A stretch of 14,098 nt of DNA, taken from the UHGV virus genome UHGV-2186863; one strand, 5' to 3'. This DNA comes from a virus. The notes below the pieces were generated by a model, which had not been told where the DNA came from, did no database searches, and saw only the letters and a list, made by a program, of their open reading frames with translations. A program made the position numbers and the translations under genes. This document shows, piece by piece, positions 13,967 to 14,098 of the stretch (position 1 is its first letter; each line of letters begins with the position of its first letter).

Positions 13967-14098
13967 TCACCCCACCAGTCCCGATAACGTCAGGACTCGC
14001 CAGGCGGTGGAAAAGAAAATGGCAACCAGCATTAGTGAAAATGAAATGCCGACAATTACACAGAGGATCTTCGCCAGCGTTATGAGTTTGTCTGACAT
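13967..14098 (-). CDS. 3' end of an upstream lysis-region gene; hydrophobic C-terminus (partial, start beyond window end)
   Basis: Minus-strand frame open from the window edge to TGA at 13969..13967: ...[42 protein letters not shown]; contains a transmembrane-like segment. The stop is 7 nt before the Rz ATG. Does not match the lambda R endolysin C-terminus as I recall it. Confidence 0.4.

Follow-up and report, generated by a model that had tools for sequence, protein, structure and literature searches.

A complete 43-codon gene with a predicted transmembrane helix lies between endolysin and Rz in the lysis cassette of Shiga-toxin and other lambdoid prophages of Escherichia coli

A complete gene in front of Rz

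The DNA analysed here, UHGV virus genome UHGV-2186863, is a stretch of 14,098 nucleotides (nt), hereafter called the window. As a whole it is the late region of a 933W-like short-tailed lambdoid prophage, with a P22-type portal, Phage_capsid_3 and an SU10 adaptor. At its right-hand end, on the minus strand, the spanin genes Rz and Rz1 are preceded by a short open reading frame (ORF), termed ORF B, which is the subject of this report. An earlier note on the same DNA had taken it for the end of a partial ORF running off the window. The features at this end are the following, with protein lengths in amino acids (aa).

13967–14098, minus strand: ORF B, complete 43-aa gene, very probably for a single-pass inner-membrane peptide (sequence, ORF list and near-identical records)
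13960–13966, minus strand: spacer AAGAGAG, 7 nt, from the ORF B stop to the Rz ATG (sequence)
13492–13959, minus strand: Rz, i-spanin, 155 aa, with an N-terminal membrane segment (PF03245, E = 1.4e-49)
13554–13739, minus strand: Rz1, o-spanin, 61 aa, embedded in Rz in the +1 frame (ORF list)

Read on the minus strand, ORF B begins with an ATG at 14098–14096, the final three bases of the window, continues as ATG TCA GAC ... GGG TGA through 43 codons, and ends with the TGA at 13969–13967. A 699-nt query covering ORF B and Rz was 100% identical to E. coli chromosomes, including that of SW070917, and 99.9% identical to phage PhiR12_3 (locus L001). In the PhiR12_3 and SW070917 records ORF B is a complete 132-nt coding sequence (CDS) with the accession WP_001280930.1 and the label "hypothetical protein". 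The full ORF, which the earlier note had proposed to seek beyond the window edge, was in this way recovered from near-identical records; with its ATG at the edge and a complete CDS in those records, it is not a partial frame.

A Shine-Dalgarno sequence, GGGAGG, lies 5′ of the ATG in the near-identical records. The frame stays open for 30 further codons in the 5′ direction, up to a GTG inside the upstream neighbour ORF A, which it would then overlap. The ATG is nevertheless taken as the conserved start, because the homology of ORF B relatives in other contexts begins only 5 nt before it. These relatives start either with ATG-ATA (MISDK...) or as MEWWLMISDK....

ORF B is therefore a complete gene and not a cut-off endolysin. 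The premise that the position in front of Rz is that of the endolysin does not hold here: the lysozyme is encoded elsewhere, by a gene (L001 3114–3647) that ends in a stop codon of its own and is located outside the window, some 350 nt 5′ of ORF B. The idea that the ORF might be the C-terminal end of a larger enzyme, either an anchored endolysin or another truncated gene, had as its one basis the initial impression of an ORF leaving the window edge. The ATG with its ribosome-binding site, the onset of homology in other contexts and the separate 177-aa SAR-type (signal-anchor-release) lysozyme upstream rule it out, leaving it a negligible probability. No lysozyme, amidase or peptidase match was found within the 43 aa.

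Conservation, selection and translation of ORF B

An ORF of 43 codons means nothing by itself, and four observations mark ORF B as a real gene: conservation across 97 variants, purifying selection specific to its frame, a ribosome-binding site and a published ribosome-profiling (RIBOseq) signal. It is, in all likelihood, a real membrane-protein gene. The earlier note had allowed that the frame might close early and be too short for a gene. It is indeed only 43 codons long and complete within the window, but conservation, substitution pattern and RIBOseq show it to be a gene.

A word-indexed search of 5.8 billion proteins returned 115 relatives of ORF B, all from E. coli or Shigella, with 63–100% identity and, in nearly all cases, a length of 43–49 aa. 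Pooling of all fetched sequences gave 97 distinct 43-aa cores. F20 was invariant (97 of 97), and K4, C13, V14, G17, M23, L24 and V25 were each kept in at least 94 variants.

Ratios of non-synonymous to synonymous substitution (dN/dS), together with the proportions of synonymous (pS) and non-synonymous (pN) differences, were obtained by Nei-Gojobori counting over the different nucleotide haplotypes present in about 100 loci.

ORF B, annotated frame: dN/dS 0.36, pS 0.29, pN 0.12
ORF B, frame +1: dN/dS 0.85
ORF B, frame +2: dN/dS 1.37
S (holin gene): dN/dS 0.09, pS 0.32
R (lysozyme gene): dN/dS 0.10, pS 0.32
ORF A: dN/dS 0.19, pS 0.10
Rz: dN/dS 0.42, pS 0.20

An earlier run with 17 haplotypes gave an in-frame value of 0.31 for ORF B, and over both runs the off-frame values ranged from 0.85 to 1.45. 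Purifying selection on ORF B is thus moderate, specific to its frame and comparable to that on Rz. Since its pS is comparable to those of S and R, there is no unusual constraint on ORF B at the DNA level. Frameshifted and read-through variants exist; the frameshifted forms occur on 1–29 contigs each, whereas individual intact forms reach at least 1000 contigs.

The variant of ORF B shared by E. coli Sakai and 933W is listed by Hucker et al. 2017 (PMC5597208) as XECs191 (Sakai 1945984–1946130), among 465 intergenic ORFs for which there is RIBOseq evidence. In lysogeny broth (LB) its transcriptome and translatome values were 30.0 and 12.6 reads per kilobase per million (RPKM), respectively, with a ribosome coverage value of 0.43 and a coverage of 0.55 (PMC5597208). 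The same authors predict a single transmembrane helix and an inner-membrane location, and their classifier call is "real" (PMC5597208).

Membrane character and family of the protein

The peptide quoted in the earlier note is present in the minus-strand translation of 13967–14098, and the hydrophobic, transmembrane-like segment noticed there falls on residues 11–29, with a summed Hessa free energy of −3.6 (scale values of the original paper). By the same measure the Rz membrane segment is less hydrophobic (−2.05), the SAR-type N-terminus of the lysozyme is quite different (+3.55), and the C-terminal segment of ORF A scores +3.9. AlphaFold2, run with the family alignment, models ORF B as one helix over residues 2–38 with a mean pLDDT (predicted local distance difference test) of 89.7. 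The layout is an N-terminus of residues 1–10, a membrane helix at about 11–33 and, C-terminally, a tail of some 10 residues. Charge is conserved only at D3, K4 and K10 (K7 in divergent members). The tail carries at most one charge, R34, which is confined to the subgroup represented here, and the family consensus MMLSSSGLLG is uncharged. By the positive-inside rule the orientation is predicted to be N-in/C-out. No single conserved helix face was detected, as there is no 100-degree periodicity; residues 12–26 are conserved on all faces, which exceeds the needs of a plain membrane anchor.

Of the topology prediction and homology search proposed in the earlier note, the former gave the single helix above, and the latter matched one family only, phrog_4906, of unknown function (E = 2.5e-27, residues 1–43 on profile positions 7–49 of 49). 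A divergent homolog, P0117, also fits phrog_4906 (E = 2e-19). ORF B had no match in Pfam or NCBIfam, nor among the PADLOC defence models at E ≤ 1. A profile search for remote relatives in 1.84 billion representative proteins gave 27 matches, all of them members of the same family, fragments or frameshifted forms. Three candidate origins by duplication were rejected by hhalign, with probabilities of 0.9% for the Rz membrane segment, 0.1% for the S21-type holin segment and 2.7% for ORF A.

The lysis cassette around ORF B

The cassette upstream of the window edge was read from PhiR12_3, where the gene order is holin, lysozyme, terminator gap, ORF A, ORF B and Rz/Rz1. The description of ORF B in the earlier note as an extra small membrane protein in the lysis cassette is upheld by this arrangement, in which a complete 43-aa single-pass protein is encoded between endolysin and Rz.

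L001: S21-type holin (pinholin), 71 aa (PF04971, E = 5e-35)
L001 3114–3647: lysozyme, 177 aa (PF00959, E = 8e-25)
L001 3804–3986: ORF A, 60 aa, just beyond the right window edge (phrog_1115, function unknown)
L001 4001–4132: ORF B in PhiR12_3 (annotated CDS, GGGAGG upstream)

The lysozyme is classed as a SAR-type endolysin because of its weakly hydrophobic N-terminus and the motif E35-x8-D44-x5-T50, which is readable in the sequence. Rz is annotated in related records as endopeptidase Rz or lysis protein. Rz1 has the lipobox LVVSAC and a proline-rich mature part, and equivalent ORFs in related loci match PF06085.

In all of the approximately 100 loci examined, ORF B lies downstream of the endolysin and within the lysis cassette. 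The S21-type holin and the 177-aa lysozyme accompany it in every locus except those of the phiP27 type, where the cassette comprises Phage_holin_8, Phage_holin_3_7 and a soluble GH108 endolysin, with no recognisable Rz/Rz1. The slot between R and ORF B is variable and is occupied by ORF A, by a 231-aa Ant (PF03374) or by a 189-aa P22_AR_N/ORF11CD3 antirepressor. Among 50 distinct S-R-B-Rz combinations the gap from ORF B to Rz was 7 nt in 43; the others had 2, 10, 218–220 or 939 nt. The distance of seven nucleotides given in the earlier note is thus confirmed for the window, where AAGAGAG separates the TGA of ORF B from the Rz ATG at 13959, and is also the prevailing one.

The purine-rich ribosome-binding region of Rz spans this 7-nt spacer and the final codons of ORF B. 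The peptide itself might accordingly have little or no function, the frame serving to deliver ribosomes to Rz after insertions between R and Rz, or being a young ORF not yet lost. Such an explanation would agree with the position of the stop codon, with a young and narrow family lacking relatives outside E. coli and Shigella phages, with the occurrence of frameshifted and read-through variants, and with a dN/dS of 0.36, which is only moderate constraint. It is made improbable by the restriction of purifying selection to one frame at normal synonymous diversity, by particular residues that are near-invariant over the 97 variants beyond what mere hydrophobicity requires, and by the prevalence of intact over frameshifted forms. 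Moreover, ORF B is kept where coupling to Rz is impossible, both across the gaps of 218–220 or 939 nt and in phiP27-type cassettes without Rz.

Simple consensus scans found no sense-strand sigma-70-like promoter 5′ of ORF B in the A-B, antirepressor-B and Ant-B contexts, and simple scans found no terminator between ORF B and Rz. No promoter-like site lay near ORF B on either strand, the sole site in the cassette scan being an antisense one within ORF A. No Rfam family was detected at E ≤ 1 in window positions 12800–14098.

These scans bear on another alternative, that ORF B is a membrane-damaging peptide, namely a minimal holin or a type I-like toxin that depolarises the inner membrane. The protein is small, highly hydrophobic, single-helical and encoded in a lysis cassette, and some holins and type I toxins have one membrane segment. 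It has no charged hydrophilic C-terminal domain, however (R34 occurs only in the subgroup represented here, and other subgroups are uncharged C-terminally), and it matches no holin family in Pfam or PHROG. The cassette already has an S21-type pinholin, neither an Rfam antisense RNA family nor a nearby promoter on either strand was found, and the presence of up to 11 copies per genome suggests that leaky expression is tolerated. This alternative is accordingly regarded as highly improbable.

Between the lysozyme gene and ORF A in L001 there is a gap of about 150 nt containing a hairpin terminator. This strong terminator-like hairpin, of 14 pairs and at L001 3738–3770, is followed by GTGTTTCTGA and stands between the lysozyme gene and ORFs A and B. 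It lies inside the expected single late transcript and is presumably passed only under Q antitermination.

Mosaicism

A blastn comparison of a phiP27-type locus (L096) with L001 showed that only ORF B and approximately 8 nt on either side are common to both, at 76% identity, whereas L096 and L090 share a block of Ant and ORF B. Because homology between distant contexts is limited to the gene and these few flanking nucleotides, ORF B is considered a discrete mosaic module. The occurrence of a homolog in the phiP27-type cassette also weakens a candidate explanation in which ORF B would act, in the manner of a releasin, specifically on a SAR endolysin or pinholin. In L096 the ORF B homolog shares its 3′ end with a 51-aa lipoprotein ORF (3625–3822) that has the lipobox LLVGC and belongs to phrog_7528, a family of unknown function; the counterpart of this ORF in phiP27 is L32.

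Co-inheritance with Rz was also considered and rejected. Mantel tests on protein distances gave r = 0.07 for ORF B against Rz, which is not significant, and there was no covariation with S either; against R the correlation was weak (r = 0.29, p ~0.001). Since ORF B and Rz do not covary despite a distance of 7 nt, a recombination junction lies directly after ORF B.

ORF A has a wider range than ORF B, including Salmonella and E. marmotae. In Salmonella prophages it is located 10–19 nt upstream of Rz, behind three different holin/endolysin types, and in one Salmonella case it is placed after a P22-type antirepressor. In L087 and L093 a remnant derived from the 3′ half of ORF A, with a frameshift, lies downstream of ORF B. 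In L007, L008, L011, L071 and L075 the contigs begin 4–110 nt 5′ of ORF B, like the window, whose edge is at 14098. These starts are probably assembly breaks at a mosaic junction, caused by co-resident prophages that differ upstream.

Distribution and annotation

Of 5,426 complete E. coli genomes 1,750 contained ORF B, with 4,658 occurrences in total and up to 11 in a single genome. Among 50,697 phage records 276 contained it, all of them Escherichia, Shigella or Shiga-toxin-converting (Stx) phages, including BP-4795, Min27, P13374 and Shigella phage 7888, and many of these records lack an annotation for it. A scan of one genome per species (185,579 species) gave a single match, a 328-bp contig labelled Xanthomonas pisi (L083, NZ_JPLE01000251.1) that encodes a 93%-identical ORF B; E. 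coli prophage DNA contaminating the assembly is its most likely source. The reference record of 933W has the homolog unannotated, in the 153-nt gap between ant and Rz:

L101 6421–6570, NC_000924 ~27420–27569: 933W homolog of ORF B (sequence; no annotated feature)

Sources that name the gene give only hypothetical protein or putative membrane protein. A search of main texts for the peptide string gave no match, and papers on Stx-phage lysis cassettes do not mention ORF B; the supplement of the Sakai RIBOseq study alone lists it. ORF B represents an uncharacterised but already catalogued small-gene family. The entries phrog_4906, WP_001280930.1 and XECs191 all refer to this family, and none of them proposes a function or mentions the location inside the lysis cassette.

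A possible role in lysis

The role of ORF B may tentatively be depicted as follows: ORF B would be a late-expressed accessory membrane peptide that modulates lysis. It would form part of the lysis cassette in 933W-like and other lambdoid E. coli prophages, in the order S21-type pinholin, SAR-type lysozyme, variable slot, ORF B and Rz/Rz1. Given that no promoter of its own was found and that Rz follows after 7 nt, it is likely to share the lysis-gene transcript that starts at the Q-antiterminated late promoter, and to be translated immediately before Rz. The short N-terminus with Lys4 and Lys10 would remain in the cytoplasm, one helix would cross the membrane, and the tail of about 10 residues would be periplasmic. 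Because the protein lacks a soluble domain and residues 12–26 are conserved on all faces, it may act within the membrane through helix-helix contact with a larger membrane protein. For bacterial membrane proteins shorter than 50 aa, among them MgrB, AcrZ and MgtS, the typical mode of action is binding to a larger membrane protein. The likeliest partner, speculatively, would be a lysis protein made at the same time, that is, the pinholin, the SAR anchor of the endolysin or the membrane segment of Rz, and the effect, equally speculative, would be a tuning of the timing or efficiency of lysis. ORF B itself would neither form holes nor cut peptidoglycan, and would be dispensable for the basic lysis pathway.

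Modulation of lysis is perhaps the most economical reading, since three inner-membrane lysis proteins are made alongside ORF B and an unrelated small ORF recurs in front of Rz. The presence of ORF A in the same slot of Salmonella prophages suggests a recurring site for small hydrophobic proteins before the spanin genes. A more far-reaching possibility, considered doubtful, is that ORF B, perhaps together with ORF A, represents an unrecognised class of tiny intramembrane regulators encoded before spanin genes, which would bind the membrane segment of the pinholin, SAR endolysin or i-spanin and set the timing of lysis. If this were so, when and how much Shiga toxin is released would, in Stx phages, be set by such proteins too.

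Several points weigh against a role in lysis. The promoter scans were simple consensus searches. The XECs191 signal barely exceeds the thresholds of the RIBOseq study and comes from uninduced cultures and a multi-copy sequence. The phiP27-type cassette means that ORF B is not tied to a pinholin, SAR endolysin or Rz, and the Mantel correlations with the lysis proteins are weak or absent. ORF B also travels together with antirepressor genes, a typical kind of accessory cargo. It is missing from many lambdoid cassettes and is therefore dispensable; part of the ORF B and Rz query matches 4,534 E. coli genomes, compared with the 1,750 for ORF B itself.

In the main rival explanation ORF B is accessory cargo in a permissive junction between endolysin and Rz, comparable to ant at that site and bor close by. 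It would be unrelated to lysis and would profit the phage or lysogen otherwise, for instance by blocking the entry of superinfecting DNA or modulating a host membrane protein. ORF B always borders the hypervariable slot with its antirepressor genes, the block of Ant and ORF B has apparently moved into the unrelated phiP27-type cassette, and the gene is a discrete mosaic module that is dispensable and narrowly distributed. Transcript and ribosome signals in uninduced Sakai cultures would also fit, although such a low signal could stem from spontaneous induction. In contrast to classical morons, however, neither a promoter nor a terminator belonging to ORF B was detected, Rz follows at a distance of only 7 nt, and no PADLOC defence model matched the protein. 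Cargo of this kind is judged somewhat unlikely, and modulation of lysis is retained as the tentative reading.

Comparison with known systems

The neighbours of ORF B are of the same type as in the cassette of phage 21 and the Stx phages (PF04971, PF00959, PF03245 and an embedded Rz1). In the canonical phage 21-type cassette R is directly followed by Rz, whereas here the variable slot and ORF B are located between them, and ORF B stands outside the four-gene system described. Almost all Stx phages use the pinholin/SAR-endolysin/spanin system (PMC8136144).

With the holin class ORF B shares the possession of at least one transmembrane segment (residues 11–29 to 11–33). A highly charged, hydrophilic C-terminal domain is a general holin property, and ORF B has neither such a domain nor a holin-family match. 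It differs from i-spanins of the Rz kind in that the membrane segment is followed by only about 10 residues, with no periplasmic coiled-coil domain. Type I toxins are likewise small and hydrophobic, but neither a promoter nor an Rfam antisense RNA was found for ORF B by simple scans.

The releasin gp25 of phage Mu (DUF2730) is an accessory membrane protein required for the release of a SAR endolysin; it has 99 aa, an N-out/C-in orientation and a 73-aa cytoplasmic domain (PMC9239132). Both gp25 and ORF B are membrane proteins other than holins whose genes lie close to those of a SAR endolysin and spanins, and gp25 provides a precedent for accessory lysis factors at the level of the membrane. 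The differences are that ORF B has 43 aa, no soluble domain, the opposite predicted orientation and no DUF2730 match, and that it also occurs beside a soluble GH108 endolysin.

Compared with morons, ORF B has no detected promoter of its own in the three contexts and no terminator before Rz in the consensus scans, the only hairpin being the one after the lysozyme gene. The ant gene of 933W and, downstream of Rz, bor occupy the same insertion-prone region of the late operon, and ORF B directly follows ant in 933W. Ant is a soluble regulator and Bor a lipoprotein expressed in the lysogen, whereas ORF B is predicted to be a 43-aa membrane helix with no detected promoter. ORF A is a positional analogue, standing before Rz in Salmonella as ORF B does in E. 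coli, with the order A-B-Rz in the present case. It has no sequence similarity to ORF B and consists of a charged, basic N-terminal part of 30 aa and a marginally hydrophobic, Gly/Ala-rich C-terminal segment.

ORF B is found inside the lysis cassette of Shiga-toxin phages, including 933W and the O104:H4-type P13374, in which lysis is the exit route for toxin and virions. About one in three complete E. coli genomes has it, yet it is absent from reference annotations such as that of 933W. If it tunes lysis, it would be a fifth component of a system usually of four parts and would offer a simple means of influencing toxin release genetically. Should it be cargo and no more, the result is a correction of annotation and the lesson that an endolysin is not necessarily what precedes Rz. 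A small hydrophobic ORF in a lysis cassette will not surprise specialists; the gene is, however, widespread in medically important phages and easily testable.

Other features of the window

Between Rz and the packaging genes there is a non-coding interval of 300 nt (13191–13491), where relatives carry bor (933W) or a Rha-family gene (L084, L093); it is thus another junction prone to insertions. A 283-aa protein without a Pfam match is encoded on the minus strand (12339–13190), upstream of the large terminase. It contains a low-complexity repeat run, SAQKNAQKSAQIDTQKSAQKNA, and is presumed to be a small terminase or DNA-packaging protein. On the same strand, positions 1974–3953 encode a 659-aa tail-fibre protein with six stretches of collagen triple-helix repeats, a phage tail-fibre repeat and a CarboxypepD_reg domain.

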